This document shows positions 2,424 through 30,593 of a stretch of 64,000 nt of DNA, piece by piece. Location: the IMG/VR virus record IMGVR_UViG_3300044612_003086, positions 1 through 64,000 of that record; one strand, given 5' to 3'. The number at the start of each line of letters is the position of its first letter. Within the stretch, counting starts at the first letter, position 1. The position numbers were made by a program, and so were the translations under genes. The notes beneath the pieces are model-generated. The model searched no databases, was not told the origin of the DNA, and worked only from the letters and a program-made list of their open reading frames with translations. Source of the DNA: an uncultured virus (IMG/VR IMGVR_UViG_3300044612_003086). Its lineage: Duplodnaviria; Heunggongvirae; Uroviricota; Caudoviricetes.

Positions 2424-2717
2424 ATGCCTTCCAAAAATACTCAAAAAATTGGAAATTCTTTTCCTCGTCCGCTGCCGAACCCAATTTCTGGCGGGGCTCC
2501 AACGGTAAATGGGGGCATGAAGGCAATTCTTGCGATTCTGAATCTTGTGTTTGTGTCGGTCATGCTCGGCTCGGTTCTGTATCTTGCTCTGCGTGTCGTG
2601 AGCGTGGACGGCAGTGGAGTGAGTATCACACTCTCTCTGTGGCGTTGCGTGGTGCTGGCGTTGTTCTACACGCTGTGGCGACTTGTCGTTACTGCACTCT
2701 TGCGTGTGCGTGACTAA
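2424..2717 (+). CDS. hypothetical membrane protein
   Basis: 97 aa, two TM-like segments, AGGAG RBS. Confidence 0.55.
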   Translation: MPSKNTQKIGNSFPRPLPNPISGGAPTVNGGMKAILAILNLVFVSVMLGSVLYLALRVVSVDGSGVSITLSLWRCVVLALFYTLWRLVVTALLRVRD

Positions 2718-2879
2718 CAACTTATCTAGTAAGTAGATACGAGCGAATCGCATGCACTTATCTAGTTCATGTGTATTGACTAGATAAGTACCAGTGGTGA
2801 TACTGACTAGATAAGTACCGAGTGTGATACACGCAATACAAGTAAGCAGAATCATTATCAGCACTTATCTAGTCCTTTC

Positions 2880-3101
2880 TCAAACAATTTCTAAGTCAAG
2901 TTCAGCGAGTGAACTCAACTGCGAAATGAAGTCAATACCTTCGTTCCACAGTAGATTCTCGTAGTCCTCACTTGCTTTCTTTGGTGTGTACGAGCCTGTC
3001 GTAATTTCGTCCAGTATTCCAGTCAAATAATGAATCGCATGTTTCAGGCTGTCTTGCAGTTCGCTCAATGCTTCCTGCACTGCTTCATCGGGTGTGTCCA
3101 C
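2880..3101 (-). CDS. hypothetical protein
   Basis: 73 aa acidic ORF; AAAGGA RBS, GTG start overlapping the 11-mer. Confidence 0.7.
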   Translation of the reverse strand: MDTPDEAVQEALSELQDSLKHAIHYLTGILDEITTGSYTPKKASEDYENLLWNEGIDFISQLSSLAELDLEIV

Positions 3102-3139
3102 TTATCTAGTCCTTTCACTTATCTAGTAGGTATTGGGAG

Positions 3140-3293
3140 TGCCTAGCCCTCTCGTAGAGCGTTAGAAACGGAAAGTGTATCGCTTGGTATTCAGAGCGAC
3201 ACACGCTCGCCGAGAGAGCGTAGGCAAGTCGTACACGGTTCTCCCCAACTGTGTACGCCAAGAGTGGGGGCTGGCTCTCACCAACCCCCACCC
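3140..3293 (-). ncRNA. candidate structured RNA (three consecutive hairpins)
   Basis: Long imperfect stem 3140-3226 plus hairpins 3230-3257 and 3262-3293; most mismatches become G-U pairs on the minus strand. Confidence 0.45.
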
Positions 3294-3311
3294 GAGGACT
3301 TATCTAGTCAC

Positions 3312-4853
3312 TCAAGCGAGTGGGATTTTGCCCATGTGTCTGCGCCACACATCACGGAACATCGCTGGATAGACACTCCGTGCCGTTCCACCGTTGCTCA
3401 ATGACTTGAGTTGCTTTATCGCTTCCTCAACATGAGGAACAACGATGTAGTTGTTCTTGCGAGCGTAGGTGAGACACTGCATAGCGAGTGAATCGTGGAA
3501 ACTGTCGTTCACGCCACACACTCCACCGTCTGTTACCCAAACAAGAGGAGTGCGAGAATCTTTGCGATTCTTTACGCCCCACTGAATTGCTGGATAGTCC
3601 ACGCCGTTGCCGTGTCCGTAGTCAATTCCTTCCACTGTCTCAACCATGCGTCCTTTGTCGCCAACGACCCATGCGTTATGACCACGACTACCTCTGTCGG
3701 AGTAGAGCAACACAGTAGCCCCAGGGGCATGCTCAATAATTTCGGCAATTTGTTCTGTCGTGAACGACATAGAACCACTTGCGTCAATAACGACCATGCC
3801 ACCACTGCCACGCACCTTTCGGTCAAACACTCGCATAGCAGGGTCGGTCATCATGCGTTGCATACGGCGAGGTCTGCGACCTGCGTTTGTTGCAATACGC
3901 TTCTTACCGATACCACCTTTGCTGTAGCGAGGCATTGGCATACGCTCAAGACGAAGTTCGCCCCATTTCGGAGTGCCAGTGGTGATAGCAGACGGAGTTA
4001 TGTCCTTGAGTGGATTTCCGTCCTTGTCGCCTTCACCTTCCTTGCCTTCACCTTCGTTGCTGTGGGCTTTGGACTTATCTAGTGAGTTACCTTCGCCCTC
4101 GCCACCAGCCTTGCTCTTGCTCGGCTTTGGTTGCTTCCGTTCCTTTGGTGGTGGGAACGAAGCGAGCCTGTCCACCCACTCGGCGAGTTGTTCCGTGTAG
4201 GTGAATCCGAACGGCGCAAGTCCGTTGTGAACTGTCGTGTTAGCCAAGTGACCAGTGCGATGAGCCTTCTTCATCTCACGCACGGCTCGCTTGCCAATGT
4301 CTAGCAGTTGGTCGCCCCATGCACGATTCACTCTGCGAACGCCGTTGAGAAATTGCTTGTGTCCAGCACTTCCAGCAGTTCCAACGCACATAGCAACTGC
4401 CATTGCCCAGTCGTTAGTTTCTGCGCAACGCTGTCCACTTGCGAGTTCGCTTCCGTCAGCAAGGTGTTTCTTTACATCTATCCCTGCCTGTTGGCAGAGA
4501 AAGTTCACACGAAGTTCCTCAACGACAGTGAGTGCTGTAGCCGAAGCCATTTCACGCTTGACCCACTCTGCCATTTGTGCCGAATCAGGCGACACCTTTG
4601 CGTGCATGAGTTCGTGCGCACGAATCGCCCGAGCCTTGTCGTCATTGTCCGTTGGTGCGAACATGATTTTGTTAGTCACATCGGTCATTGGCTCGCCACG
4701 CACGGCTTGGCAGTGTTCTACTGTCCAAACTCCGTGTGCTTGGTCACGCCGACCGAGAAGGGTTGCCTCGGCTTTGGCGTTACCCCGAGTGGACTTATCT
4801 AGTCCACTCGGGAACGCCTTGCCAGCAACATGCTTGCCAGCAGGTTGAGACAT
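3312..4853 (-). CDS. HExxH metallopeptidase-like + vWA (MIDAS) domain protein, partner of the adjacent AAA+ ATPase
   Basis: HELMH, VVIDASGSM and VWVTDG motifs; low-complexity linker; overlaps the AAA gene stop. Confidence 0.8.
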   Translation of the reverse strand: MSQPAGKHVAGKAFPSGLDKSTRGNAKAEATLLGRRDQAHGVWTVEHCQAVRGEPMTDVTNKIMFAPTDNDDKARAIRAHELMHAKVSPDSAQMAEWVKREMASATALTVVEELRVNFLCQQAGIDVKKHLADGSELASGQRCAETNDWAMAVAMCVGTAGSAGHKQFLNGVRRVNRAWGDQLLDIGKRAVREMKKAHRTGHLANTTVHNGLAPFGFTYTEQLAEWVDRLASFPPPKERKQPKPSKSKAGGEGEGNSLDKSKAHSNEGEGKEGEGDKDGNPLKDITPSAITTGTPKWGELRLERMPMPRYSKGGIGKKRIATNAGRRPRRMQRMMTDPAMRVFDRKVRGSGGMVVIDASGSMSFTTEQIAEIIEHAPGATVLLYSDRGSRGHNAWVVGDKGRMVETVEGIDYGHGNGVDYPAIQWGVKNRKDSRTPLVWVTDGGVCGVNDSFHDSLAMQCLTYARKNNYIVVPHVEEAIKQLKSLSNGGTARSVYPAMFRDVWRRHMGKIPLA

Positions 4854-5581
4854 TATTTCACCCCGTCAATGGCGAGTGCGTCAAGAATCTGACGGGAACG
4901 GTCGCCGAAAGTGAGTGAGCATGCTCGTTCCATGCCAACGCTCGCACGGAGTTTGTCCAATGCGATGAACGCACGAAGTGAGATACGGTCGTCACCAGCG
5001 TCAGCCATGCGAACGGCGTACTTGCGCAAGTCAGGAGACAAGCGAAGCAGTGCGCTCGGGTGTGGCTCGTTGATACGAATACGAATCGGGAAACGGTCAG
5101 CGAGTGCTGTTGGCAACTCACCCATGTTCTCAATGTTCGTGGTCATAATTGCCGAGAATCCACCGAGAGGACGAATCACTTCGCCAGTTTCAGGATGCTC
5201 AAACGAAGCAGATTCAGGTGAATCCAACATCGCCAAGAGTGTTGCGAACACATCGCCCGAAGCCTTATCTACTTCGTCCACGATGAGTCGTCCACCCTCT
5301 GTTCCGTTGCCCTTCCATGCCTTGAGAGCCGAACCGTCCAGCCACATGAAGCCACCTTTGCCGTTCGGCATGAAGCCACCTGTAACATCCATGTTCGTCA
5401 TGTCCTCGGTGCAGACCAGTCGGAACGCACCAGCGTCCACTTTGCCGAGCGTCATGCCAGCGTAGGTCTTTCCGATACCTGATGGACCGTAGAGGATTAC
5501 TCGGTCTATCCCTGCGTTGAGGCAGTCCTCAAGTGCTTTCCAGCACTCGGGGAGAGCCGTTGTTTCTGTCTGTGCAACCAT
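4853..5581 (-). CDS. MoxR/CbbQ/CobS-like AAA+ ATPase
   Basis: Walker A GPSGIGKT, Walker B LIVDEVDK, sensor MTTN, ALADRF. Confidence 0.88.
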   Translation of the reverse strand: MVAQTETTALPECWKALEDCLNAGIDRVILYGPSGIGKTYAGMTLGKVDAGAFRLVCTEDMTNMDVTGGFMPNGKGGFMWLDGSALKAWKGNGTEGGRLIVDEVDKASGDVFATLLAMLDSPESASFEHPETGEVIRPLGGFSAIMTTNIENMGELPTALADRFPIRIRINEPHPSALLRLSPDLRKYAVRMADAGDDRISLRAFIALDKLRASVGMERACSLTFGDRSRQILDALAIDGVK

Positions 5582-5888
5582 TGGTATTTCTCCGTTTCTA
5601 GTAGTTGGGTTGGTTGTCGTGTACCACTGTAGCGACCCGACAGCAGATTTATCTCGCCACTTATCTAGTTAGTTCATACCACTTATCTAGTCAGTCCACT
5701 TATCTAGTTAGTTTCACTCGGACACTTATCTAGTTAGTTCCAGCCACTCGGTAATCGTTCGGCAACTTGCACCCGACCACCCCGTGCCTCGCCAACTTAC
5801 ACCCGACCACCCCGAGCCTCGCTTCCTTTGGAAGCCCCGCGGACTTATCTAGTTAGATACAGAATTATTAGATTTTTGACTTATCTAG

Positions 5889-6368
5889 TTAGTCAGGTCG
5901 CTTGGCGATAGAGATTCGGTACAAGCCACGCTTGACCTTGATGAACTCTGGAGTTTCGTTCACGAACCCGAGTGTCGTCTGATACGAGAATCCACACTGC
6001 TCAACCAGTTGCTCGGTGGTGAACTCTTTACCGTCTTGGGTCTTTGCCCACTCCATAAACGCACCCCATTTGTCCTTGCGTTTTTCAGGCTTCTGCATTG
6101 CTTCCCTCTGGACTTCCTTGCCACAGTATGTCTGAATAATGTGGTCGGCGATGTGGGGAAGCACGGAGTAAGAGTTCAGGTAAGAAAGCACATTTTTGCT
6201 TCCACCTTCCCTTTGCCATAATTGCAGTACATGTAGCCCACGAATCAGTTCGCTGGCATTGGACGCTTGTTCTTTGGGAATCCGATACATCGTTCCGAAT
6301 TCTTTTTCCATTTCCTTCCACATCTCTTTGTGGATTCCGTCAATGAATTCATCAGTCAGTTTTTTCAT
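5889..6368 (-). CDS. hypothetical protein, possible C-terminal winged HTH
   Basis: 159 aa; AAAGG RBS; own promoter element at 6414-6441. Confidence 0.7.
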   Translation of the reverse strand: MKKLTDEFIDGIHKEMWKEMEKEFGTMYRIPKEQASNASELIRGLHVLQLWQREGGSKNVLSYLNSYSVLPHIADHIIQTYCGKEVQREAMQKPEKRKDKWGAFMEWAKTQDGKEFTTEQLVEQCGFSYQTTLGFVNETPEFIKVKRGLYRISIAKRPD

Positions 6369-6732
6369 GGCTACCTTTCTAGCGGAACTTTATCCCGACT
6401 TGCCCGTCACTCCAGATTATCTTTTGGTAGGCAGACTTATCTGGTACGGCAACGCAAGAAAGTTATTTTTTTGACCACCTGACATCGAGGGCACTTCCTT
6501 TCCACCACCGTCAATTAGATTCACCACCCCCCGGGAATTAAATTTGTCAAATTTTTCATTTTTTTGCACGTTCTGGCGGCCGGCTGCGGCGGCTCTGGAT
6601 TTCTGGATTTTTTGGCAGCGAAACGCGGGGCTTACATGGTGAATCGGGTGCATAAAGAAAGAGGGTGGGTTTGACCCCACCCCCTGACTTATCTAGTTAG
6701 TTATCGGACTTATCTAGTAACTAGATAAGTGG

Positions 6733-7131
6733 CTACTGGTTCTTGAGAAAATCCTCAATGTCGGGAATCGTCTCTTTGGCTATTTCCCGTGCTTCCGAAT
6801 AAGCCATAGCGTCCATAATCAAGTCGTCCAGCATGTCTGCCAATGCACGGTCGTCCTCTGTGAGCAATGGTCCATCAGGACTTGGCACAAGAAACTTTAG
6901 CGCCTCATCCTTCTCCTTGTCGGGGAGTTGTGCAATTTCTTGCACCTGCGAGAAACTGAATCCCATTCGGTGACCATGATTCTGATAAACAAACAGTGCC
7001 TCGGTCAATGTCTGCAATGCGTCAAATCCGAATCTGATAAACGGATTCTCGGTGGGAAACTCGGTGTTATCAGAGAACACTTTTTTCATTATTTCTTGCA
7101 TTTCTTCATCATGGTTTTGTTGTTCGCTCAT
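6733..7131 (-). CDS. hypothetical protein
   Basis: 132 aa ORF, GAGG RBS. Confidence 0.7.
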   Translation of the reverse strand: MSEQQNHDEEMQEIMKKVFSDNTEFPTENPFIRFGFDALQTLTEALFVYQNHGHRMGFSFSQVQEIAQLPDKEKDEALKFLVPSPDGPLLTEDDRALADMLDDLIMDAMAYSEAREIAKETIPDIEDFLKNQ

Positions 7132-7280
7132 TTCACTTCCTCTTTCTGTTTGTCGTTGGTTATTAGCGAACGCAGGTCAAGCAACATGTCGGTCATTTCC
7201 GATGAAGCAACTAAGTCTCTGCCCGAGCAGTGACGAATCATTGTGTCCACCAGTTCGGTTGCTGTAAGTGTTTGGGTCAC
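7128..7280 (-). CDS. small hypothetical protein (50 aa, not in ORF track)
   Basis: GTG start in the 11-mer after AAGGGA; stop overlaps the next ATG (ATGA). Confidence 0.6.
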   Translation of the reverse strand: MTQTLTATELVDTMIRHCSGRDLVASSEMTDMLLDLRSLITNDKQKEEVK

Positions 7281-7284
7281 TTAT

Positions 7285-7989
7285 CTAGTTCCCTTCTTTG
7301 TCGTTGTCGGCTTCGGTGAGCAAGGTGTGAAACGCCTTTGCCTTTATTGCCATTTTCAGGTATGAAATCGTCTGAAGCATGGCATTGGTGAAACGAGCCT
7401 CAGCCATTTCGCTGTTCTCATCTGTCAGGTGAACAATGTCAGTGTCCACATCATCAAACATCGGTACACCTTGGTCGTCATAGGTGTAGGTGCTTGCGCT
7501 CATGTAAATCTTGTCCTGTTCCCAGTCCACGCCACTTACTACAAGACCCTCACGAACATCGGTGAAAGGGTTGTTTTGGAACTCATCTTTCAGCGATTCT
7601 CTTTCACTGTCACGGTCGGCTGGAGTCGTCAGGTCTGTGAAGCGACGCATGTAACCCTCAACAGCAACAAAGATGAAGTTCACTGGTGCTGTAGGCAAGT
7701 GACCAACAGCGTCAATGTAAGCGTCGTATGGGTCGCCTTTGTGAATCAGTGGAAGCATGGCAACATCGTATTGGCGTTCCAAGCCCAACTGCTTTGTGTA
7801 TTGACTTGCTGATTCAGCCAATTCATCATCTGTATCATCAGACTGGTGAATACGACCAATGATGAGCATTGGTGGGGTGTCGCTCATCGCAACCTCTTTG
7901 CACATTTCTTTTTTTGCATACTTGTTTCGGCGCATTACATCGCCGAGAATCTTTAGTATGTCGTTTGAGATTACTTGCTGTTCGCTCAT
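7285..7989 (-). CDS. hypothetical protein
   Basis: 234 aa, AAGGAG RBS, promoter element at 8020-8047; stop TAG supplied by the 11-mer. Confidence 0.75.
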   Translation of the reverse strand: MSEQQVISNDILKILGDVMRRNKYAKKEMCKEVAMSDTPPMLIIGRIHQSDDTDDELAESASQYTKQLGLERQYDVAMLPLIHKGDPYDAYIDAVGHLPTAPVNFIFVAVEGYMRRFTDLTTPADRDSERESLKDEFQNNPFTDVREGLVVSGVDWEQDKIYMSASTYTYDDQGVPMFDDVDTDIVHLTDENSEMAEARFTNAMLQTISYLKMAIKAKAFHTLLTEADNDKEGN

Positions 7990-8096
7990 GGCGTTTCTCC
8001 TTTGGTGGTAAGTACCAACACTGTATCTATTAGTAAGCAGACTTATCTAGTGAGTATGGGTGGGGTGTCCACTCCCCACCCATTTCACATCAGGCA

Positions 8097-8321
8097 TTAT
8101 TTTGCAATAATGTCTTGGGCGTTCACTTTCATCGCTTCGCACAACAATAGAAATGTCGTCATGCTTGGCGAGAAATGTCCGTTCTCAATGCGATTCACCG
8201 TTTTACGGTCAATGCCAGCCTTATTCGCCAGCGTTTCTTGTGACCACTCACGCTCAAGTCTTTCGTTCTTGAGTCGCTCTGCGATTCGCATTGTCTTTTT
8301 CTCAATGGCTGTAAGTGCCAT
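8097..8321 (-). CDS. XRE/Cro-family HTH transcriptional regulator
   Basis: WSQETLANKAGIDRKTVNRIENGHFSPS; AAGGAG RBS. Confidence 0.9.
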   Translation of the reverse strand: MALTAIEKKTMRIAERLKNERLEREWSQETLANKAGIDRKTVNRIENGHFSPSMTTFLLLCEAMKVNAQDIIAK

Positions 8322-8355
8322 GTCTTTCTCCTTTGTTTCTTGGTTGATTTTGGGT

Positions 8356-9123
8356 TTAGGACTTATCTAGTAAGTAATCGTCATACTGACTGAACGATAG
8401 TTTCTCCTTTCGCCTCTGATTAGAACGAATCCACGACACGATGAGTTGCATCGCCTTGTCGCACGAATCAACCATTTCATCGTCACGGTTTGCTCGCCAC
8501 TCACTCTGTGCTTCCCAGTATTCGTCCATTTGTTCATCGGTATCTTGGGGCATGCCCTCTATCTCCGAATCCATTTCGGTTACACCTTCGCCCTCAACAA
8601 TGAGTTCGCCATTGTGGATTACAACCCAACCAGCAAAGAACTCGGCTTCTTCCGTGAACACGACACCGAATACAAGTTTCGGGAACTGCTTTGAGATACG
8701 AGCGATAAGACCGTTACACGGCGACCATGCTGACTGGTAATACATTGAGACAGAACCCTTGTTGTAGTCGTCATCAGATACGCCAACATCACCTGCGCCC
8801 CACTTGCTTCCCCATACGGCGTTGGCATAGTCGTACCAGTCCTTGTAGCCGTACTTATCTAGGTTGTCTTGCATTTGCTTTTTGTGTTCAGCCTGTTTGT
8901 CCTCGGGAACTGAACCCGAAACCGTGTTCATCAACGCCTCGGGAATCGGGTCAAGGTGGTTGAGTGAATCAACTTCTACTTCTTTTTCACCAGTGGCTAC
9001 CCATTTGCCGTCTTGGATTTCTCCAGTCTTTTGCAATTCCTTTATCTTGAGTGATTTCAGGAATCGCTTGAGTTCAGGTTTCGGACCTGACACCTTCATT
9101 GTGTTACTGCACCAGTTTGGCAT
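8356..9123 (-). CDS. DUF1281/YubB-like ferredoxin-fold protein
   Basis: MPNWCSN start, WYDY...WGSKW, YQSAWSP motifs; AAAGGG RBS. Confidence 0.75.
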   Translation of the reverse strand: MPNWCSNTMKVSGPKPELKRFLKSLKIKELQKTGEIQDGKWVATGEKEVEVDSLNHLDPIPEALMNTVSGSVPEDKQAEHKKQMQDNLDKYGYKDWYDYANAVWGSKWGAGDVGVSDDDYNKGSVSMYYQSAWSPCNGLIARISKQFPKLVFGVVFTEEAEFFAGWVVIHNGELIVEGEGVTEMDSEIEGMPQDTDEQMDEYWEAQSEWRANRDDEMVDSCDKAMQLIVSWIRSNQRRKEKLSFSQYDDYLLDKS

Positions 9124-9401
9124 GCTCGCCCTTTCGTCTAGTAGTGGTACGACCCACTCTAGCCCCACACCAGCAGATTTATCAACCTGACTTATCTAGT
9201 CAGCATGTTCTTCCACCACCGTCAATGTCTTGATGTGTTCTCAACCCGACCCGACTTTCACCCGACCCACCCGTGAGCCGACCCAACTTCTTGCCGACCA
9301 CCCCGAACCAGCCCCACCCCATCACTTACCGTGTAAGCCCCGCGTCCCACTGTTTAGCCGGGGCTCAAAGGGTCGAGCTGGTTTAATTTGGTTGGACTTA
9401 T

Positions 9402-9731
9402 CTAGTCAGTAATGATTTCGTCTGCGTAAACGAGTTGTGTTTCGCTGACACGCCAGCCGTTCTGATGGTCCGTCCATGCGTACTTGATAAGTGCCGTCCA
9501 CTTATCTAGGTAGTCATAAATCTCATCATCGGGAATCCCATAGTCGTCAAAATACGAAGTGTCGTTCGGGTCTGGCGAGAAAGAGAAATAGACAAATGAG
9601 CGACCCTCTGGAAACTCCACTCTGCACTTGCTGCCGATGAGAATCAGACCACGAGCCTTTATTGCGAGCATGGTCAGAAAGAGCCGAATCGTAACCCATA
9701 GGGGAACGAAGAACTTATCTAGTAGGTTCAT
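9402..9731 (-). CDS. hypothetical protein
   Basis: 109 aa, overlaps upstream gene; stop inside the 11-mer. Confidence 0.6.
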   Translation of the reverse strand: MNLLDKFFVPLWVTIRLFLTMLAIKARGLILIGSKCRVEFPEGRSFVYFSFSPDPNDTSYFDDYGIPDDEIYDYLDKWTALIKYAWTDHQNGWRVSETQLVYADEIITD

Positions 9732-9957
9732 ACGCCATCTCGTTTACGTCTTTGCCGAGAAGTTGGTCTGTAGTCAGCCGAATTATTGAGCGCACAATGT
9801 CGTCACTTGTTATGCCCCACGAATCAAGAGCCCACGCCAATAAAGTTCCATTTGCTAAATCACCACAAATTGCTTCTATTGCTTGAGCCCGTGTCGTGGC
9901 AAGGAAGTAGTAGTTCTCCCACAAAATCTTGTCTAAATCTTCAGGCGTCAGAACCAT
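9715..9957 (-). CDS. hypothetical protein
   Basis: 80 aa, AAGGAG RBS. Confidence 0.65.
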   Translation of the reverse strand: MVLTPEDLDKILWENYYFLATTRAQAIEAICGDLANGTLLAWALDSWGITSDDIVRSIIRLTTDQLLGKDVNEMAYEPTR

Positions 9958-10223
9958 TTCTCTCCTTTCACGGAAACAGTAGTCCGTACCACCCCAGTTT
10001 CGGTAGCAGAAACCACGACTGGAGTCAGCACCTTGTATGCGTTTATCCAGTACTTAGACCGTTCAGCAGACCTGACCCATTTCGCCCTTTCTTCATCGGT
10101 CATGTATTCCCACTCATCGGGCATTTCATTGGTGGGGATACTCCACTCCTCAATTATTTCTTCTTCTTCGTGTTTCACAATTTGTGCGCTCGCACGGACT
10201 GTGATGTGAACATGGGCAGTCAC
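9948..10223 (-). CDS. hypothetical protein
   Basis: 91 aa; AAAGGA RBS + GTG start in the 11-mer. Confidence 0.65.
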   Translation of the reverse strand: MTAHVHITVRASAQIVKHEEEEIIEEWSIPTNEMPDEWEYMTDEERAKWVRSAERSKYWINAYKVLTPVVVSATETGVVRTTVSVKGEKWF

Positions 10224-10236
10224 TTATCTAGTCCTT

Positions 10237-10737
10237 TCAGTACCAGCAGGTAGAGCCGTCTGCCTCATCGGCAGTCCAACGAAGCCACCAAATCGCATAA
10301 CGAATCTGAGGAATCAAATCCTCACCGTTCACGATGAACTCTGGAGAATCCTGAATCTTTTCGTTCAGAAACCATTCCATTTGGTTGGCAGTTGCTCGGC
10401 AACTCTCTGGAGACTTCTCCGTACCTTCCTCATTGTCGCCATAGAAATCGTATTCGCTAATGCCAAGAGCGTCAATGAGGTAGTTCCCCCACTTACCCCG
10501 ATACCAGCACGGAGTTCCGAACATGCCGTACACAGCACCTTCGGTCATGCCACTTGCCTTGACTGCTGTCTGATACGGGCATGCGTTGCGATTAGCAGTT
10601 TCCTCACAGGAAATGCTTTCCACGAACTCACCGTCTTGTCCACGAATCGGCTGACCTTCCTTGTCCAGTCGCCTCACCATTACTGCCGTGCCTTTGGACT
10701 TGCACGGGTAGTTCTTCGGTATGTTGTCTAATCCCAT
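10237..10737 (-). CDS. hypothetical protein (MGLD-start phage family)
   Basis: 166 aa, AAGGGG RBS, promoter element at 10769-10796. Confidence 0.75.
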   Translation of the reverse strand: MGLDNIPKNYPCKSKGTAVMVRRLDKEGQPIRGQDGEFVESISCEETANRNACPYQTAVKASGMTEGAVYGMFGTPCWYRGKWGNYLIDALGISEYDFYGDNEEGTEKSPESCRATANQMEWFLNEKIQDSPEFIVNGEDLIPQIRYAIWWLRWTADEADGSTCWY

Positions 10738-11073
10738 TTTCTTCCCCTTTGGTTTAGTAGGTGATTACACGATACATGTGTACGAGCAGACTTATCTAGT
10801 AATCCTTTCCACCACCGTCAAACAGTTAGAGCCAGCAAACGACATTCCCCCGACACGCCCGAACTTTGCGCACTTTTCCCCGACCACCCCCGTTGCTCGC
10901 AAAAAAATCCATTTTTTATCACTTCCCGTGTGAGCCCCGGCTCATGGTCGGGGCGCGGGGCTTCCATCGTCGGAAGCGAACTTATCTAGTAAGTATTCGG
11001 GTCGGCACTTATCTAGTAAGTATCCAGCCAGCCCGACCCACCGTTGGCAAGTGGGTCAGACTGACTAGATAAG

Positions 11074-11385
11074 TCACTCGGCTTCGGCGATACCAGCCCT
11101 GCCCTCGTAGCCACGAACAGCGTTAGAGATTTGCCCGTAATAGTCACCGTTCTCGCAGTACCAGCCTTCGGGTCGTGCGATGAGTGTCCACACCACGAAC
11201 GGCGAGTAGGTGTCGTTCGGCAAGTGGCACAGCACTGTCCACGAAGCGTACAGACCGTCACCAGCGACATTACGCAAGTGATACGCAAGCACCAAACCGT
11301 CATTGGCGTTAGTAAGCACCAGCCCCACTTTGGGGGCTGGTGACTTATCTAGTGAGTTGATGTGGTGAATAGTTGCTTCACTCAT
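11074..11385 (-). CDS. hypothetical protein
   Basis: ATG overlapping the end of the upstream gene. Confidence 0.6.
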   Translation of the reverse strand: MSEATIHHINSLDKSPAPKVGLVLTNANDGLVLAYHLRNVAGDGLYASWTVLCHLPNDTYSPFVVWTLIARPEGWYCENGDYYGQISNAVRGYEGRAGIAEAE

Positions 11386-11848
11386 TGGGAAGTTCACCGT
11401 TGGCGAAGTAGTTATCCATTTGCTCATCGGTCATACCGATTACCTTTGGTGCGAAGTTCTCATCATCGCTCGCCCAGTCGGTGAGCCAATTTGCGTACTC
11501 ACCGTCAGTGCGAACGGTCTTGACGAGATTTGCGAATTGCTCACTCCATACGAACGCAGGAACATCGTGGTTCTCTCCGTCATACTCGCCCTGCTCGTTG
11601 AGCGCACCGATTACCACGCAGTCACCTGCCAGTGGTCTGCCGAACAGTGCCGAAGCGACTGCGTTCATTGGCAAGCCGATGAGCAAGCCTTCATCGTTGA
11701 TGTAACCAACAATGCCCAAGTTTCCCTCGTTCACGCTGTCAAACCAACCACCTACGATTTCGTTGATGGCGATGTGAGCCGTGTCCTCGTCAAGAAAGAG
11801 TGGCAAGCACTCTCCCTCGCTTGTGATGTGTAATGCCTTTGTTGCCAT
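11378..11848 (-). CDS. DUF3846-like protein
   Basis: EIVGGWFDSV...YINDEGLLIGLPMN...LAGDCVVIG pattern. Confidence 0.75.
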   Translation of the reverse strand: MATKALHITSEGECLPLFLDEDTAHIAINEIVGGWFDSVNEGNLGIVGYINDEGLLIGLPMNAVASALFGRPLAGDCVVIGALNEQGEYDGENHDVPAFVWSEQFANLVKTVRTDGEYANWLTDWASDDENFAPKVIGMTDEQMDNYFANGELPNE

Positions 11849-11943
11849 TGTTCTACCCCCTTCGGGTCTAGGTATTTATTACGATTTCATCGTAATAGTG
11901 GGTGGGCAGACTTATCTAGTAAGTCCACCCACCCACTGAACGA

Positions 11944-12354
11944 CTAAGCGACTTTGCTCGCCTTGCTTGCTGGCTTGACTGCGCCCTTCGCTGGCTTCAC
12001 CAGCACTCGGACATAGTTCGTGATTTCCACGACTGACTTGATTACCTTGTTTGGTATTTCGCCCTTGTCCACTGCGCTATCCCACGCCTTCGTGTCCACG
12101 CTTGGCTTCGTCACCTTACGGAACAGAGCAGGACTGACTGACTTGCGCAACTTATCTAGTGAGAAAGACCTGCGCTCGCTCGGCGTGACCGAGAGAGTGA
12201 TTTCGTCTTGCGTGAAGTCGTTGATGCCGTTCTCGGCGAACACTGCGACAAGAGTTTCTCTTGCCACTTCGTGCGCCTGCTCGGCTTGTTCTTTCGCTGT
12301 GAGAGCGTTTAGGAACGCTTCCACTGCTTGCTTGACTTGGGTTTCTGTAGCCAT
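11944..12354 (-). CDS. hypothetical protein
   Basis: AAGGAG RBS before MATETQ; promoter element at 12395-12422. Confidence 0.75.
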   Translation of the reverse strand: MATETQVKQAVEAFLNALTAKEQAEQAHEVARETLVAVFAENGINDFTQDEITLSVTPSERRSFSLDKLRKSVSPALFRKVTKPSVDTKAWDSAVDKGEIPNKVIKSVVEITNYVRVLVKPAKGAVKPASKASKVA

Positions 12355-12721
12355 TGGTTTAGTCTCCTTTGTGTTGGGTGGTGGCTTGCGCACCACCCTA
12401 CACCCGTGAGAGCAGATTTACCAACATCGCTAGACAGATTTCTGAACTTGCCCCCGACACGCCCGATTTCCACTTGCCCCCGACCACCCCGTGCGCCCAT
12501 TATTCTTGCCCTATGCGCCCTTTCCTTGTAAGCCCCGGCAGCCAGCCCTTCCAACGGGGCTCAGAAGGTTGGATAGAGGAAAGGCTGGCACTTATCTATG
12601 AAATGACAGCCGAAGCGAACAGACTGATAGCAATAGCCGAAGCAAGCAACGCCGAAGCGAAAGCCCTGCTCGCTCGTAGTCGCTTCTCGCTCGTCAGGGA
12701 CTTATCTAGTTAGATAAGTGA

Positions 12722-12757
12722 AACGGGTGGCTCACCATTTCTGGCAAGCCACCCGTT
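12722..12757 (-). terminator. hairpin, probable intrinsic terminator
   Basis: AACGGGTGGCT...AGCCACCCGTT inverted repeat downstream of 12786-13211. Confidence 0.55.
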
Positions 12758-12785
12758 ACTTTCGGTGGTTTAGTGGGAAAGGGGG

Positions 12786-13211
12786 TTAGAGATACTTCGC
12801 CACCGAGTTGTAGGTGCTTGCGCTCACCAACTGCTCGTCTGTGAGTTTCAGCACACGAATTGCCTGTGAGATTTCCTCTTTTTCACGCTTGAACTCGTGT
12901 TCGCTGTAACCCGTAGGGCGTTCAGGCTCGGCTGGGAGTGCGCCTGCTGGAAGCAGAACGCTGACGCTGAACGATACTTTGCCCTTGTGCTTGCGGTCAC
13001 GGGAGTACCAATAGTTCTTGCTGGCTTCCTCAATTTCGCCTTTTCCTGCTTTGATGAGTTTCAGGACAGCGAGGTTGTACGCCTCAACTGCCTTTTCGTA
13101 GGCAAGTTCCTCTTTCTCTTGGTTCTTGTACCGAGCCTCACGCTCGGCAAGAGCCTTCTCTAAGTGAGAGATGAGAACACTCACCTTCACCTTGACTTTG
13201 ACTGTGGACAT
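12786..13211 (-). CDS. hypothetical protein
   Basis: AAGGAG RBS before MSTVKVK; promoter element at 13258-13285. Confidence 0.75.
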   Translation of the reverse strand: MSTVKVKVKVSVLISHLEKALAEREARYKNQEKEELAYEKAVEAYNLAVLKLIKAGKGEIEEASKNYWYSRDRKHKGKVSFSVSVLLPAGALPAEPERPTGYSEHEFKREKEEISQAIRVLKLTDEQLVSASTYNSVAKYL

Positions 13212-13534
13212 TATTGCTCTCCTTGTTCGGGGTCTAGTTGGTATCCGAACACCACCCACGCTACGAACACGACAGCAGACTTATCTCCACTTATCTAGTC
13301 AGTTCAGTTTCCTTTCCACCACCGTCAATAAGTTGAGGACAGATGTTGGTCGCCGTTTCTTTCAGCGCAAACTTTCGCCCGACCACCCCGAAGCGCACTC
13401 ACTTCGCTTCACTCGCCTGCTTACCGTGTAAGCCCCGTGGTTTTTTGTTTTATTGAGCGAAGCGGGGCTCAAACCGTTGAGTGAGTGTTTGGCAACTTAT
13501 CTAGTGAGTGTGTGTGGACTTCGGACTTATCTAG

Positions 13535-13834: not shown

Positions 13835-14095
13835 CAGTAACCCCCTGTATTTGGTTTCTCCAACTCTAACTCGTATCGGGCAGATTTATCTGACTTTCTC
13901 CCGACCACCCCGACGCTCCAATAAACGCAATAAACGCAACGCTACGCAGGGAGCCCCGGCTCCTCGCAGGCCGTGCTCGCCACCATGCTCGCAGGACTTA
14001 TCTAGTTAGATAGATAAGTGTCGGCAATGGAATAAGCCCGACACACTCTCGCAAGTATGTCGGGCTCGTCCGTGTCGGATGAGACGTGCTAGGTA

Positions 14096-20042: not shown

Positions 20043-20116
20043 CTAGATAAGTGTCCAGATAAATCTGCTCGTCATTTATTACCATTATTAGTACCTACTA
20101 CCGAAAAGGGGAAAAT

Positions 20117-20539
20117 ATGTTGGTAACAGATGTAATCGTGAGAAGCAGGGGAACAGCGTTCTCAATAGCGCACAAATTTCAGCAAGGCGAAAAAATTGCC
20201 TTTCGCCAAGAAGGCGACAAAGATGTATTTCTCGTAGATACCGTACTTGTTTCTAATGACGGCAATTCGGTTTATGTTGACGGCACTTGGCTTGATGCAG
20301 AGAACGATTATGAATTCGGTGGAGAGTGGGATAACGAATTTGATTCCCGTGATGCAATTTTTGTTTCGTTCGTAGAAGTAGTAAAGCGTGAGCCTCGCAA
20401 TTGGACGGAGTGCTTGCCTGCTGAATACAACAATGGCACTTACGCTTGGACGGAAGAAGTGGTCTGGGATGCAATTGCAGAATTTCACGGAGTAGATGTT
20501 TCCGAAATTGCTGACGGTGACCTTGCTTCTTATCTATGA
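20117..20539 (+). CDS. hypothetical protein
   Basis: 140 aa, AAGGGG RBS, promoter element at 20058-20085. Confidence 0.7.
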   Translation: MLVTDVIVRSRGTAFSIAHKFQQGEKIAFRQEGDKDVFLVDTVLVSNDGNSVYVDGTWLDAENDYEFGGEWDNEFDSRDAIFVSFVEVVKREPRNWTECLPAEYNNGTYAWTEEVVWDAIAEFHGVDVSEIADGDLASYL

Positions 20540-20558
20540 ACTAGATAAGTAATGAAAG

Positions 20559-20598
20559 ACCCACTTATCTAGTGAATAACTAGGTGAGTGGGTTTTTT
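20559..20598 (+). terminator. intrinsic terminator whose stem contains the 11-mer
   Basis: ACCCACTTATCTAGT-GAATA-ACTAGGTGAGTGGGT followed by a T-run. Confidence 0.7.
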
Positions 20599-20778
20599 CG
20601 TATGCGTAACTAACTAGATAAGTGCATTGAGTTGGTTACTGCTACCGCAGCCCCGCCTTTCGTCGGTTTTTATGACATTGACTTATCTAGTAAATAGAAA
20701 AGCCCCCATCAGTTCCTGCGAGGACCGATGGGGGCGATTCGTACTGGGTGGAAATCGGGGGAAATCACCCAGCGAGCT

Positions 20779-21705
20779 TTAGAGACGTATGTATCCAGTC
20801 TCTGCCGGCTGTGTAACTGGCTTGATTGCTGCAACTGTCGTGTTCGTAACACTCTCGCGACGCAGCTTCATTGAGTCACGCACCTGACGCTTCTGTTCGA
20901 GCACATCGACGAGAGCAGCGAGCGATGCGTTCATCTCGCCCTTGCTAGTCGGGGTGTACTGTCCGTAGAGGTTAAAGGTGCCGTCCGGCAAGGCTTCCTG
21001 GCTCGTAGTGAACTGCGAGAGGTCAAACCCGTAGCGAGTACTCCATTTCCAACGGAACGTAAAGAACTCCTCGTTAGCCTTTGCTCCACTGCGCAACAAG
21101 ACGCGAGAATTTGGGTGCTTGAGGACTTCGAGGAACAGCTCTTCAGTCTCGTTCATTGGGTACTTGATGACGTGATTCAGAGAGCCAGGCTTTGTTTTGG
21201 TTGCCTTCCCCATCCTGGTTGAGGTGACTGTCAACCCTGATTCGACAGCAGACTTGATGGTTTGCAGCTTCTCACGAATTTGCTTAACCTTGCGGCCACC
21301 AGGGATTGTCAGTGCTCCACCCGTGAAGCGTGCATAGTGCTCAATCTCGCCAGCCTCATTAGCGCGTGTGACGATTTCGATGCCTTTTGCAATGCTTCGC
21401 AGTGGGCCATTGCCACCACGCTTCTTTGACTTCTTGACGAGGAACCACTCATTCGGAGAATCGAGAAGTGTCATAATAACAACTTCGATGTTCGTCAATC
21501 GTGGGACTGCCTTGCTTGAGGTGCGACCAGTGGCCGACGATGGTGGTGCCATCTTTACTGGTAGTGGTGCCATCCCACTAATAACCTTTGCCATTTTGAC
21601 AATGGTTTGCTGGTCTACGTTAGAGGCACTCGATGTAAGTGTCTCAATGAGTTGTGCCTGTCCGGCACCGGACGGGGACTTACCCCGATGCTTTGTTGTC
21701 GCCAT
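20779..21705 (-). CDS. hypothetical basic protein
   Basis: 308 aa, AAGGAG RBS. Confidence 0.75.
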   Translation of the reverse strand: MATTKHRGKSPSGAGQAQLIETLTSSASNVDQQTIVKMAKVISGMAPLPVKMAPPSSATGRTSSKAVPRLTNIEVVIMTLLDSPNEWFLVKKSKKRGGNGPLRSIAKGIEIVTRANEAGEIEHYARFTGGALTIPGGRKVKQIREKLQTIKSAVESGLTVTSTRMGKATKTKPGSLNHVIKYPMNETEELFLEVLKHPNSRVLLRSGAKANEEFFTFRWKWSTRYGFDLSQFTTSQEALPDGTFNLYGQYTPTSKGEMNASLAALVDVLEQKRQVRDSMKLRRESVTNTTVAAIKPVTQPAETGYIRL

Positions 21706-21811
21706 GGTTGGCTCCTTCTAGTTACTTGTCTCAGGTGGCTTATTGCCACTTGGGGACAGACTAGGGCTTGCCAATACGAGTTCACAACCTCCAACAAAGA
21801 TTTTTTTTATG

Positions 21812-21840
21812 TTGCATGGTGGCGTAAAGATGACTAATAT
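21812..21840 (+). promoter_or_regulatory. sigmaA-type promoter
   Basis: TTGCAT-17-TAATAT upstream of the histone-like gene. Confidence 0.5.
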
Positions 21841-21898
21841 TGCCTCCGACCGATGTGAAGCGCTCACAAAGGCAAACAAACAACTAGGAGATAGCTAA

Positions 21899-22177
21899 AT
21901 GGCTACAAAGAAAAAAGCTGCACCAAAGAAAGCAGCAAAGAAAAAGCCGGCCAAGAAAACTGCAAAGAAAGCAGTAAAGAAAGCAGTAAAGAAGAAGCCA
22001 GCAAAGAAAGCCGTCAAGAAGGCAACCAAGAAGACAGCAAAGAAAGCAAAGACGGTCAAGAAGGCTGCCAAGAAGGCAGTTCGGATGCCAGCTCCTGCTC
22101 GCAAGAAGCTAAAGAAAGCTATTGCTAATAACTCATCAATTATCGACGGTCCAATCGTCGACAACGCGCAGAAGTAA
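21899..22177 (+). CDS. histone H1-like Lys/Ala-rich DNA-binding protein
   Basis: Repeated KKAAKK/KKPAKK; AGGAG RBS. Confidence 0.8.
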   Translation: MATKKKAAPKKAAKKKPAKKTAKKAVKKAVKKKPAKKAVKKATKKTAKKAKTVKKAAKKAVRMPAPARKKLKKAIANNSSIIDGPIVDNAQK

Positions 22178-26807: not shown

Positions 26808-27012
26808 TTCGTGTCTTTCCTTCTCTCTCTTTTAGATAAATCTAACCGAGTATTGCCTGGTTCATTGTACACCGGGGCTCCAGAGGCAGGGGCAGTGGTT
26901 GGGGTTCGGTCTGTGGCGAGGGCGCACGGGTGGGTCGGCAGAAAGTCGGATAATTCTGCTCGTCAATGGTTATGATTTATTCAGGAACTAACGCTCGTGA
27001 AAGGGGCAACTA

Positions 27013-27992: not shown

Positions 27993-28225
27993 ATAAGTCT
28001 CAACGGTCACCCGTAGCCTCTGCGCTCTTATCCCCAACCCCCTTTCATCAAGGGCGTAGGGGTTACGGGGTTTCACTTATCTAGTGAGCATTACTCTGCT
28101 ACGGCGAGACTATGACTTACTAGATAAGTGTTCATCACAAGTGAGGGCAAAGTGCGAAGCACTGCGCCAGCCGGGGCTCCGAGCGTTTGAGTGTGGTTTG
28201 TGTTGTAACTAGATAAGATGATGAG

Positions 28226-28558
28226 ATGAACGAGAACACCTATCGAACAGCAAAGACAATTCTCATCGCTATCGCAATAACACTTGCGTCAGTATTCGCA
28301 TTTGGGTATTTGGAAAGACAGCAAGCAAGAGACAGTGAGTTCTTTTGTGATGGCACACCAGTCACTATCAAAGAAGGCGACACTCTCTATTGGATAGCCC
28401 GAACAAAGTGTGAAGGCAACACTATGGAAGTGGTGGACAGACTTGTCGCCCTGTACGGCACGACATTGACTATCGGTGACACCATCTATCTGCCGACACA
28501 CAACTCCTGTGAGTTGCGTATGACAGACGGTGGTCAAGTAATGGAAGAGTGTGCGTGA
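28226..28558 (+). CDS. membrane-anchored LysM domain protein (paralog of 13535-13834)
   Basis: TM segment then VTIKEGDTLYWIA...LTIGDTIYLP. Confidence 0.8.
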   Translation: MNENTYRTAKTILIAIAITLASVFAFGYLERQQARDSEFFCDGTPVTIKEGDTLYWIARTKCEGNTMEVVDRLVALYGTTLTIGDTIYLPTHNSCELRMTDGGQVMEECA

Positions 28559-28771: not shown

Positions 28772-28956
28772 TAGATGCCGTATGTTCCGAGTTGAGTGCG
28801 CTCTGCTTGGCGCAAGACTTCGTAGATTTCGGAAACATGCGCTTCCGTGTGTTCATCATCAGCGAACAACCTGACTATCTGTAAGACACACTCCAAGCGA
28901 GCAACCTGCTGTGCCGTAAGTGTGATAGTGAGTTCTGCGTTTCGTGCTATTCCCAT
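28771..28956 (-). CDS. hypothetical protein
   Basis: AAGGGG RBS; promoter element at 28978-29005. Confidence 0.6.
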   Translation of the reverse strand: MGIARNAELTITLTAQQVARLECVLQIVRLFADDEHTEAHVSEIYEVLRQAERTQLGTYGI

Positions 28957-29004
28957 TGTGTTCCCCTTTCGGTATTGACCTTAGGGTAGGGCGAGCAGAC
29001 TTAT

Positions 29005-29412
29005 CTATTTACTATCTGTGACATCACGCCACTGACCATCAACGACCACCTGATAGTGCGCCCCCGACACTGGCACGAGTTCGCCATTAGCATTGCGTTC
29101 ATACTTGCCGAAGTTCTCAGTGGAACGCCATGCCCACTCACAGCACGGTGTTTCACTATCGCAGGGGTGTGTCCCCTTACCTATCGTCTCTGCCAATGCT
29201 GGGAACAGAGTAAGGAACTTCACTATGCAGTCGTGACACAGTATCCAACTACGGCTACGGCGATTACTAAACAGTACATCTACCTCATCAGTGAAGCCAC
29301 CATAGTAACCAAATAGGTCAAATGGTAAATCCCAACCGTTACTAGGTAGGTGCTTTTGTTCATCGCACTGGACATCGTAGTCACAACCTGAACAGCGAAC
29401 ATGGTTACTCAT
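29005..29412 (-). CDS. hypothetical Cys-rich protein
   Basis: CSGC...CHDC; promoter element at 29422-29449. Confidence 0.65.
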   Translation of the reverse strand: MSNHVRCSGCDYDVQCDEQKHLPSNGWDLPFDLFGYYGGFTDEVDVLFSNRRSRSWILCHDCIVKFLTLFPALAETIGKGTHPCDSETPCCEWAWRSTENFGKYERNANGELVPVSGAHYQVVVDGQWRDVTDSK

Positions 29413-29474
29413 AACATCTCAACGATAGTCGTATGCGAGCAGACTTATCTAGTACCCGTAGCACTTGGCGACTT

Positions 29475-29888
29475 CTATGACTGGCGTGTGTTGAGGCGAA
29501 GGTAGGCAGAGTAGGCGTAGTTGCGTTGGCGTTGGCGTTCGGCGTGTGCCCTCTCTGCGTCTGCTGGGGGCATACGGTCTATCTCATCATCAGTGGGTGC
29601 GAAGCCTATCTCCCTCTCTGCTTCTAGCATCAGTGACACAAGGCTAAGCGTGTGGGTGTCTGCGTACTCACCCGTAGCGATGTGGCAACCTTGTTCATCT
29701 AAGTCAAGTGCCAACAGTTCGCTTGCTACCTTTGAGATGAATACACCTGTGAGTTTCATCTGCGACAGGCGTTGGTGTGTGGTCAGGTGTTCGTTCGCTG
29801 TCCTCTTAGACCGAAGCAACTGTGTGTACATACTGTTGCTTGGAACGAAAGCGACAAACTCTGATGGGGTTGGCTCTTGTGTTGTCAT
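29475..29888 (-). CDS. hypothetical protein
   Basis: 137 aa ORF. Confidence 0.6.
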   Translation of the reverse strand: MTTQEPTPSEFVAFVPSNSMYTQLLRSKRTANEHLTTHQRLSQMKLTGVFISKVASELLALDLDEQGCHIATGEYADTHTLSLVSLMLEAEREIGFAPTDDEIDRMPPADAERAHAERQRQRNYAYSAYLRLNTRQS

Positions 29889-30593
29889 CTCATCTCTCTC
29901 TTGTGTTTGTGTGTGTCGTGTGTATGCGATGTGTATGAGCGAGGCTCTGCGTGGCTAAGCCCACACCAGACCCGAAACCCGACAGACCCGACAGTGCTGT
30001 TGGTTTTGTTGGCGTGTCGTGTTGCGTGTTGGATTACATCGGGTGTGTGGTCTCTCTCTCGGCGTGTGTCTTACTGAAACACTTGGATAAATCGTCTTGC
30101 TGTTTTTTGGGGTGTCGTATTCGGGTCGTGACTTATCTAGTGAGTTGTGTCGTTTTGTAATCAGCCAGAAACCATCGGCACACACTGCGAGAGACTGCTG
30201 TGTGTCCTCTGCGTGTGTGGACTTGTTGCCGACTACCCCGAGTACCGACACAAATTGCGAAAAATTGTTCGCAGTGTCGCCTCGCAGCACCTGTCTCTTG
30301 TAGCCCCGCGAAACTTTCTCGGTTGAGGCAGGGTGGGTGGGGGAGCAAAATCGCAAAAAATTCATCCCAGGTTTTTCACTTAAATTTATCCAATGCATAC
30401 AGCTCGGCCGCCAGTTTGCGGACTTTCTTCCAGTGTCTTGATTGTCTCCCATTTGCCCCCAGACAGCATGGGATGAGCCCTGTGAAGGACAAATGCATGA
30501 ATGCCCTGTCTTCGTATGCTTCAATCACGTCCGGTGAATCCGAGTACAAAGCGTCCTGTGTTTCTTTCACGGTTCAAGCGTATACTGAAATTC

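Follow-up and report, generated by a model that had tools for sequence, protein, structure and literature searches.

What is the function of a seven-base word that recurs at the borders of small genes in one part of a large phage genome? The question is raised by the first 64,000 nucleotides (the window) of the uncultured virus record IMGVR_UViG_3300044612_003086 (Caudoviricetes; 133,891 bp, CheckV completeness 89%), in which the word CGGGGCT, read as AGCCCCG on the opposite strand and hereafter called H, divides an early-gene block at 2492-30308 into modules. An earlier sequence-only reading had recognised this partition and proposed the ends of mobilisable cassettes. The pattern it described is real and strong and its boundaries were rightly sensed: the modules are self-contained units of expression, not transposons, and have subterminal boxes inside their ends. 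For H we favour, tentatively and with rather less than even confidence, a boundary or insulator word, asymmetric and family-wide, that a protein would recognise inside regulatory linkers resembling the PeSL of T4-type phages and the ESAS of Cluster K mycobacteriophages.

H was counted on both strands and compared with 100 dinucleotide shuffles of the window. There are 27 sites, against a shuffle mean of 4.17 and a maximum of 10, and 0 of the 100 shuffles reached 27. All but one lie in the block, 13 on each strand, and their alternation is broken only at 13952/14890 and 26873/28172. A scan of the whole genome revealed no further copy beyond the window. Where relatives from IMG/VR have to be told apart, they are numbered G001 to G009.

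H, plus strand: 2492, 6626, 9359, 10956, 12555, 13463, 14914, 15846, 17600, 17989, 19305, 26873, 28172
H, minus strand: 5833, 9336, 10933, 12531, 13431, 13952, 14890, 15822, 17553, 17957, 19272, 20649, 30302
H outside the block: 1356-1362, minus strand, inside the gene 1229-1744 (minus strand), the sense strand of which reads CGGGGCT; kept in G005 and G006

Nine junctions are back-to-back pairs of the form AGCCCCG-spacer-CGGGGCT, with exactly the spacers first reported and, as first reported, with unrelated spacer sequences, both here and across related loci. The other sites in the block are lone arms. Pairs are listed without strand, and P, T and M4 denote boxes described below.

9336-9365: pair, spacer 16, between the gene 9402-9731 (minus strand) and the unit beginning at the P box 9286-9303
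10933-10962: pair, spacer 16
12531-12561: pair, spacer 17
13431-13469: pair, spacer 25 (16 in the orthologous pair of G004)
14890-14920: pair, spacer 17, P boxes on both sides, heading divergent units
15822-15852: pair, spacer 17, P boxes on both sides, heading divergent units; its right arm enters the hairpin GCTCCC-AAA-GGGAGC (15850-15864)
17553-17606: pair, spacer 40, left border of a one-gene cassette; two independent assemblies end here (17536, 17592)
17957-17995: pair, spacer 25
19272-19311: pair, spacer 26 (16 in the orthologous pair of G004)
2492-2498, plus strand: lone arm marking the left end of the block (AGCCCCG on the minus strand, which is transcribed), followed by the M4 box 2388-2401; also lone in G005 and G006
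5833-5839, minus strand: lone arm, unit start, entering the hairpin GCTTCC-AAA-GGAAGC (5821-5835)
6626-6632, plus strand: lone arm, unit end, directly after the canonical terminator 6660-6685 (minus strand); also lone in G005 and G006
13952-13958, minus strand: lone arm, unit start, with P box 13893-13910 and promoter 13863-13890
20649-20655, minus strand: lone arm amid T boxes
26873-26879, plus strand: lone arm, unit start, with P box 26929-26946 and promoter core 26949-26976
28172-28178, plus strand: lone arm upstream of the gene 28226-28558 (plus strand)
30302-30308, minus strand: lone arm, right end of the block, with P box 30221-30238

When all elements were oriented by the direction of transcription before the units were compared, one order emerged: CGGGGCT, a short hairpin, one or more P boxes, a promoter, a leader, genes with T boxes between them, a T box and/or a terminator, and AGCCCCG. 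Because a unit opens with CGGGGCT and closes with AGCCCCG, a back-to-back pair joins the close of one unit to the opening of its neighbour. In every case H stands between the gene ends on one side and the P box with its promoter on the other, 50-170 bp upstream of the predicted transcription starts. The short hairpin begins at the GCT of CGGGGCT, and its versions at 5821-5835 and 15850-15864 differ by a compensatory change. The lone start arms 5833, 13952, 26873 and 30302 are all accompanied by P boxes; behind 5833 follow the P boxes 5795-5812 and 5765-5782, four T boxes and the promoter core 5626-5653.

The P box, cGGGGTGGTCGG-N4-AAGT, is G-rich, occurs one to four times per unit at 16-70 nt from H and is always directed away from the nearest H. 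The sequence-only reading had noted these boxes inside many ends, and each was found where it had placed it. The relaxed pattern G[GT]..TCGG-N4-A[AG]GT gave 22 matches, two of them doubtful (6387 and 25281).

P boxes, minus strand: 5765, 5795, 6387, 9254, 9286, 10872, 12446, 12472, 13371, 13893, 14841, 15767, 17495, 19225, 23079, 25281, 30221
P boxes, plus strand: 14951, 15883, 18026, 19351, 26929
Promoter cores, both directions: 5626-29449, pattern [GT]ATAANT[CT]TG[CT]-N10-12-TAnnnT, 19 copies
Fifth box (M4), TTGACGGTGGTGGA, minus strand, five copies: 2388-2401, 6501-6514, 9212-9225, 10808-10821, 13315-13328

The predicted promoter core is of sigma-70 type, GATAAGTCTGC-N11-TAnnnT with the core form GATAA(G/A)TCTGC-N11-TAnnnT; its -35 part reads TAGATA or TTGATA, with an 18-nt spacer. 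All 19 cores (GATAANTCTGC-N11-TAnnnT) are followed by a leader of 30-60 nt, a strong Shine-Dalgarno sequence and ATG, and a scan of the whole genome (134 kb) found none outside the block. A P box does not look like a promoter by itself: no TAnnnT was seen about 15 nt past AAGT in the 14 of 22 P boxes inspected by eye. Likewise, about ten of the 17-nt spacers between H arms, inspected in the same way, held no sigma-70-type -10 element. The T box is ACTAACTAGATAAGT. The first and the last H had been said to bracket all copies of an 11-mer, and this holds for 71 of the 72 exact copies of the 10-mer core (CTTATCTAGT) in the genome, which lie at 2721-30141; the remaining copy is at genome position 109729. 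Almost all gene junctions have T boxes, which contain stops in each of the three reading frames, provide the stop codon of about a dozen genes and in some cases overlap the -35 part of a promoter core. They also form tandem arrays, for example the four copies at 5660-5734, which look like operators. The M4 box lies 10-60 nt upstream of some promoter cores; in G005 and G006 it also follows lone AGCCCCG arms, and in relatives it occurs outside the block. Less specific searches added little. Generic promoter and terminator scans gave counts at chance level, Rfam (positions 1-34000, E <= 1) returned tRNAs and chance-level matches only with nothing in the block, and a scan of the whole collection with a gapped H-P pattern gave mostly single chance matches.

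To place these elements in related phages, we used the AAA_5 ATPase of the block; its alignment identified 132 relatives, of which 80 loci (71-100% identity) were kept. The exact H 7-mer is present in 80 of 80 loci, and it is the sole recurrent inverted 7-mer with a 14-20-nt spacer. In the close relatives G001 (98.8% identical), G002 (about 92%) and G003 (99.96%) all boxes are kept, and in G004 and G005 (about 70-77% nucleotide identity, proteins 31-90%) H, P and T are kept as well. In G006, the proteins of which are 30-86% identical, H is exact (32 sites, 11 pairs), whereas T has become CTAATAGATAAC (64 copies) and P CACGGGGGGCTTCCGATAA (18 copies); the promoter part AGTCTG-N12-TAnnnT is retained there although the box upstream of it differs. 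The T box is rewritten from lineage to lineage (CTAATAGATAAC, GAGTAGATAAGT, TAGGTGTAGGTAAGT and others), and the P and T forms of further lineages are generally a G-run followed by a GATAAGT-like box. The early region presents dozens of small genes of unknown function under a strict three-layer syntax, with H frozen family-wide and P and T rewritten per lineage.

The distance between paired arms is quantised. Among 149 pairs, in which near-identical loci count repeatedly, the spacers measured 15 (3 pairs), 16 (33), 17 (64), 18 (26) and 19 nt (2), followed by 24 (9), 25 (7), 26 (1), 36 (1), 45 (2) and 60 nt (1). Hence 128 of the 149 fall at 15-19 nt, 17 at 24-26 nt and none at 20-23 nt, and the 93 distinct pairs give the same picture. 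Spacer lengths had been thought to cluster about one helical turn apart; two classes do exist, but they are separated by 8-9 nt. Orthologous pairs can switch class, as do the two pairs with 25 and 26 nt here and 16 nt in G004. Three lineages keep the arms 2492 and 6626 unpaired, the counterpart of the lone arm 13952 in G004 is a full pair with an extra rightward unit, and distant lineages have mostly single H words or the opposite arrangement, CGGGGCT-N25-33-AGCCCCG.

Outside the block the word is avoided. The hexamer CGGGGC/GCCCCG occurs 0 times in the other 103.5 kb of the genome, where 11.5-24 copies are expected (Markov orders 3 to 1), and none of the 2052 hexamer pairs expected at least 6 times is more strongly depleted. 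The complete relative G001 has its 16 copies in the block and none in a stretch of about 130 kb; the block holds 32 of 34 in G007 (one 29-kb stretch) and 37 of 43 in G009. We fetched 32 out-of-block hexamers from three relatives: 25 read CGGGGC[A/G/C] and seven CGGGGCT, and of these seven, five in G008 and one in G009 lie beside the block and one near a contig end. The 7-mer is a word that these genomes reserve for border use, because it is excluded from the rest of them. Other words are also strongly under-represented at genome positions 30401-133891, namely ATCTTA (8 observed, 41 expected), ATTCTA, CGGGAC and ATGATA. The idea that AGCCCCG acts as a polar terminator on the sense strand, which would fit the intragenic copy at 1356, was dropped because three out-of-block copies in relatives read AGCCCCG in the sense direction of long open reading frames. 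The other CGGGGC hexamers show a 19:6 sense bias, as purine-rich sense strands would give anyway.

On the reading that we prefer, CGGGGCT plus a few flanking bases would be an asymmetric word marking the borders of small early-gene units across a whole family of large lake phages. A family-conserved protein, either a phage or a host factor, would read it on double-stranded DNA, and it may serve at unit borders as an insulator or operator, by analogy with the asymmetric stoperators of Cluster A phages and their monomeric repressor. Factors particular to each lineage would read the P and T boxes. Where units abut, the end word and the next start word make up AGCCCCG-N17(+/-1)-CGGGGCT. Units would be lost, gained and reordered as wholes because the same short linkers recur at every border, and this turnover would be a by-product of the linkers, as in T4-type PeSL, not transposition. 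If so, each lineage has its own regulators, readable from sequence alone, and a factor that binds the shared border signal should exist and be retrievable with the 7-mer as bait.

Several observations weigh against this reading. Only two clear DNA binders are encoded in the block or near it, a 74-amino-acid XRE-type helix-turn-helix protein (8097-8321) and a WhiB-like protein (47309-47677), and neither was linked to H. Simple binding of a dimer to the same face of the helix fails on the two spacer classes, because they lie 8-9 bp and not a full helical turn apart. The exclusion of the hexamer is not uniform, since about 22 of 65 copies in G008 are outside the block. Moreover, only two strong canonical terminators were found at 2400-22000, so something else must end most units, and the arms are able to form a G+C-rich 7-bp stem. 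In Pseudomonas phage JG024 the same arms with 17 nt between them constitute a predicted bidirectional terminator, according to the excerpt of that report consulted (PMC3008698). Finally, the 26 nt from the GCT of the downstream arm fold more stably than shuffles, and more so on the sense strand (-6.86 vs -4.78) than on the antisense strand (-5.56 vs -4.29), and the mirror side is without such an excess (-3.19 vs -2.56), which hints that at least the downstream arm may be transcribed and act as RNA.

The plain RNA stem-loop is accordingly a serious rival, although we think it rather unlikely. It takes the pairs as the terminator or processing half of a PeSL-type terminator-plus-promoter linker, with the arms kept identical by recombination among copies. 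The position of the pairs downstream of gene ends and upstream of promoters agrees with it, as do the scarcity of strong terminators and the JG024 precedent; the 7-bp stem gave folds better than shuffles (z <= -2, at least one strand) in five of the nine pairs, and head-to-head and tail-to-tail arrangements are both foldable. Four results argue against it. No partner-specific complementarity beyond the 7-mer was found in 26 pairs from three lineages: in the three comparisons, matches out of 8 in the arm flanks were 4.00 for partners vs 3.82 for non-partners (p=0.38), 3.67 vs 4.30 (p=0.83) and 3.00 vs 3.44 (p=0.90). Here the arm flanks share the motif Y-M-C-A-N-N-G-T (of 26 arms, 20 have A at +4 and 24 have G at +7), and the apparent extension of the stem reflects this motif and not selected pairing, because partner flanks are no more alike than those of non-partners; nor do they pair better in sense than in antisense RNA. 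Lone arms are conserved in three lineages. In several lineages canonical terminators or T-runs often sit directly upstream of AGCCCCG, so that H is not needed as a terminator: a T-run lies at most 25 nt upstream in 31 of 87 distinct pairs, and distant lineages have textbook hairpin-plus-U-tract terminators 8-20 nt before AGCCCCG. The fourth is the opposite arrangement in distant lineages. In addition, the loops would be long (15-19 nt in 128 of 149 pairs, none below 15), most pairs here are without a U-tract, and no compensatory stem variant occurs among the 80 loci, whereas the small adjacent hairpin does covary. A bidirectional promoter for an alternative holoenzyme, with AGCCCCG upstream, CGGGGCT downstream and transcripts starting at or after the downstream arm with the short hairpin, seems very improbable to us. 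Its 17 (+/-1) bp would suit sigma-70-family spacing, and A/T-rich runs upstream, the G at +7 and the sense-biased hairpin from the GCT of the downstream arm would fit as well; yet no sigma factor or RNA polymerase gene was found, a downstream element of G+C only would resist melting, a separate, well-formed promoter class lies downstream, and neither the 24-26-nt class nor the lone arms nor the tail-to-tail arrangement agrees with such a promoter. We give as little credit to H as a strand-nicking or cleavage site, whether of a phage nickase producing localised nicks of the T5 or phiKMV type or of a sequence-specific host topoisomerase I. Exclusion from the rest of the genome and sites on both strands at unit borders speak for it; known phage nick sites, however, are confined to one strand. 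The sequence GGCTTC, present in half of the arms, is near the site of mycobacterial topoisomerase I. That site is C(G/T)CTT(C/G), and one or two changes reduce cleavage, as stated in the excerpt of PMC6379724 consulted; H was rejected as such a site because only five of six bases match, and only in arms with T at +1 and C at +2 (12 and 15 of 26).

As to the cassette hypothesis, whole modules do differ between relatives.

17600-17963, minus strand: cassette between inverted H words, with promoter GATAACTCTGC-N11-TAGGCT (17915-17942), gene 17655-17879 (74 amino acids) and two 3' hairpins
17989-19278, no strand: H-bounded block with inward P boxes 18026-18043 (plus strand) and 19225-19242 (minus strand) and two convergent genes; missing from G006
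G001: indel of 863 bp, with a 21-bp direct repeat holding a T box on its flanks
G002: indel of 305 bp, beside the T box 20042-20051
Another contig: indel of about 290 bp, between the T boxes 15079 and 15116

The cassette 17600-17963 is missing from G004, which has one ordinary pair at this place, and its homologue in G006 is again flanked by H. The module order is [J][I H' G][E][D C][B][A] here (H' denoting a module) and [J][E][I x H'][C G][B x x][A] in G006; by our reading of the gene order, about six of about 11 adjacency changes fall at H pairs. Three contig ends from two independent assemblies adjoin H pairs (17536, 17592 and 9383). The contig ends of G001 match 9383 and 17592, without 9384-17591 (8.2 kb), and share only GTT; this gap reflects variation among strains or else a place where the assembly broke at repeats. 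Together with the exclusion of the 7-mer elsewhere, as expected of a site that is cut or recombined, these findings are what can be said for H as the ends or recombination sites of mobilisable, integron-like gene cassettes served by an unrecognised recombinase or nuclease. We consider it improbable. The absence of any visible integrase or transposase, first noted for the window, extends to the whole genome and to a 100%-complete relative: profile searches found no tyrosine or serine recombinase, Y1 or rve transposase (PF00589, PF00239, PF01797, PF00665; PF00589 as a six-frame search, with controls matched in 14 of 14 genomes), and the Pfam and PHROGs annotation held no integrase or transposase. 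No target-site duplications were found, and neighbouring spacers share no sequence and are too long for the cores of known tyrosine or serine recombinases. In an all-against-all megablast of the 80 loci, a comparison of little power with noisy endpoints, neither H (9 of 234 endpoints at most 15 nt away, 2.2% for random placement) nor T-like boxes showed an enrichment of homology endpoints; of the sharp endpoints, 2 of 35 (at least 95% identity) were within 20 nt of H vs 2.3% at random, and 0 of 24 at 97% or more. The larger indels among close relatives (three) break at T boxes, not at H. An H pair between two adjacent genes of G006 is missing here with the gene order unchanged, and operon borders tolerate rearrangement anyway. 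In DNA contigs of two runs, joints with short sides (22 and 28 nt) were not trusted, and the contigs broke at 16.7 and 17.7 kb, away from H. Of the changes in module order relative to G006, then, about half coincide with H pairs, but sharp homology endpoints show no enrichment there; whole modules differ between relatives, and no dedicated mobile-element features were found. A broader version, in which H serves an unrecognised DNA-level machine that handles whole promoter-gene-terminator cassettes without a known recombinase (integron-like or by insulation plus exchange), the word being purged elsewhere, appears to us no less doubtful.

The early-gene block consists of small genes of mostly unknown function. 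Its G+C content is about 0.47-0.53, compared with about 0.44 elsewhere, and it contains all P, T and promoter-core copies of the window along with its 26 H words. Its best conserved gene is the ATPase used for the alignment, which is invariably accompanied by a partner without known family; we take the two to be possibly a MoxR/CobS-type pair.

4853-5581, minus strand: AAA_5 ATPase, 71-100% identical in the 80 loci
3312-4853, minus strand: its partner of about 515 amino acids

The window further encodes an HK97-type capsid, a class II ribonucleotide reductase, ThyX, a primase-helicase and eight tRNAs. A stretch of 113 bp at 31691-31803, including tRNA-Lys (31718-31791), is missing from G001. 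A 2205-amino-acid protein at 37854-44471 (minus strand) has an RNase_T exonuclease domain and PHROG matches to a ParB C-terminal domain and a DNA polymerase exonuclease subunit, and may be a replication protein formed by fusion. Outside the window there are a terminase, baseplate proteins, a polyvalent protein of 2954 amino acids (genome 74951-83812, minus strand) that combines prohead protease, ArdC-N, zincin MPTase and UvrD helicase, and more than ten 2OG-Fe(II) oxygenases. A 2458-amino-acid protein without Pfam or PHROG match adjoins the polyvalent protein, and at about 115.8-129.3 kb we found at least ten genes of 2OG-Fe(II) oxygenase type, two glutathione-peroxidase-like genes and one Asp/Asn beta-hydroxylase-like gene. 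The host is probably an actinobacterium, because the phage encodes the WhiB-like protein and its capsid is 49% identical to capsids of Brevibacterium and Gordonia phages. At least half of the sampled words were found in 18 freshwater or lake-water DNA runs from 18 different studies; phages of this family are abundant in lakes, though all 18 runs are flagged as possible sources of the present DNA. Several of the 132 related contigs are complete genomes of 145-170 kb. A megablast of 8-20 kb against GenBank phages gave no match, and two metatranscriptome runs yielded sparse intragenic contigs of about 200 nt, uninformative on starts, ends and strand.

Comparison with known systems gave partial likenesses. 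Among the matches listed, literature containing both 7-mers consisted of terminator tables or primers, and no listed paper had the P or T strings in a phage context. The REP/BIME elements of enterobacteria are alternating extragenic repeats at operon 3' ends that bind gyrase and IHF and can act as mRNA stabilisers or weak terminators; each REP is a palindrome of about 35 nt spread by a RAYT transposase. H is likewise extragenic, alternates in orientation and stands at operon 3' ends, but by itself is not palindromic, and there is no Y1 transposase. Integron attC sites have seven-base inverted core sites around a variable centre, between small gene cassettes, and measure 57-141 bp; the cassettes are usually promoterless. 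H shares the seven bases, the inversion, the variable centre and the place between successive small units; however, no IntI-type recombinase was found, the pairs span 29-33 bp as a rule and every unit has its own promoter. Nor does the block resemble a transposon or insertion sequence, having neither transposase nor target-site duplication. H presumably also resembles the conserved inverted repeats of the Streptomyces phage phiC31.

The phage systems come closer. The Cluster A stoperators are, like H, asymmetric short sites with tens of intergenic copies, and the consulted excerpt of PMC9283540 has them read by a monomeric repressor that blocks elongation; for H, such binding is what we infer. 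Stoperators co-vary with the repressor of each phage, which the T and P boxes here fit and H does not. H also differs in its mostly inverted pairs and in that the present phage has no evident repressor or lysogeny module. Brown and colleagues are said to have reported in 1997 that stoperators are oriented with respect to transcription. The PeSL of T4-type phages, as described in excerpts of PMC2839356 and PMC4122927, are short composite terminator/promoter linkers that separate small genes, most of them of unknown function, in an early region of high plasticity, where whole gene units are lost, gained and swapped between relatives. The present linkers agree in these respects, and a predicted sigma-70-like early promoter lies inside the repeated linker. 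Unlike PeSL, they combine at least three separate boxes (H, P and T) with the promoter, H is one invariant family-wide 7-mer with an unconserved 15-19-nt spacer that also occurs as a lone arm, and homology endpoints are not enriched at H. The system offers a way to ask, outside T4-type phages, whether repeated regulatory linkers are what drives the turnover of cassettes. The ESAS of Cluster K mycobacteriophages share with H the many inverted repeats with variable spacer in the non-structural half of an actinophage genome, and the association with another repeat, asymmetric and close to gene starts; what ESAS do has been unexplained since 2011 and was still so in 2025, as far as the excerpts of PMC3203893 and PMC12699233 go. 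According to the same excerpts, ESAS have imperfect 17-bp arms with 4-13-bp spacers directly upstream of the SAS box or start codon, and a consensus that varies by subcluster. The H arms, in contrast, measure 7 bp with a weak flank, usually stand 15-19 bp apart, lie upstream of promoters and not at start codons, and are invariant across lineages. With its lone arms and two arrangements, H offers cleaner tests of ESAS-type inverted repeats of actinophages than ESAS themselves do.

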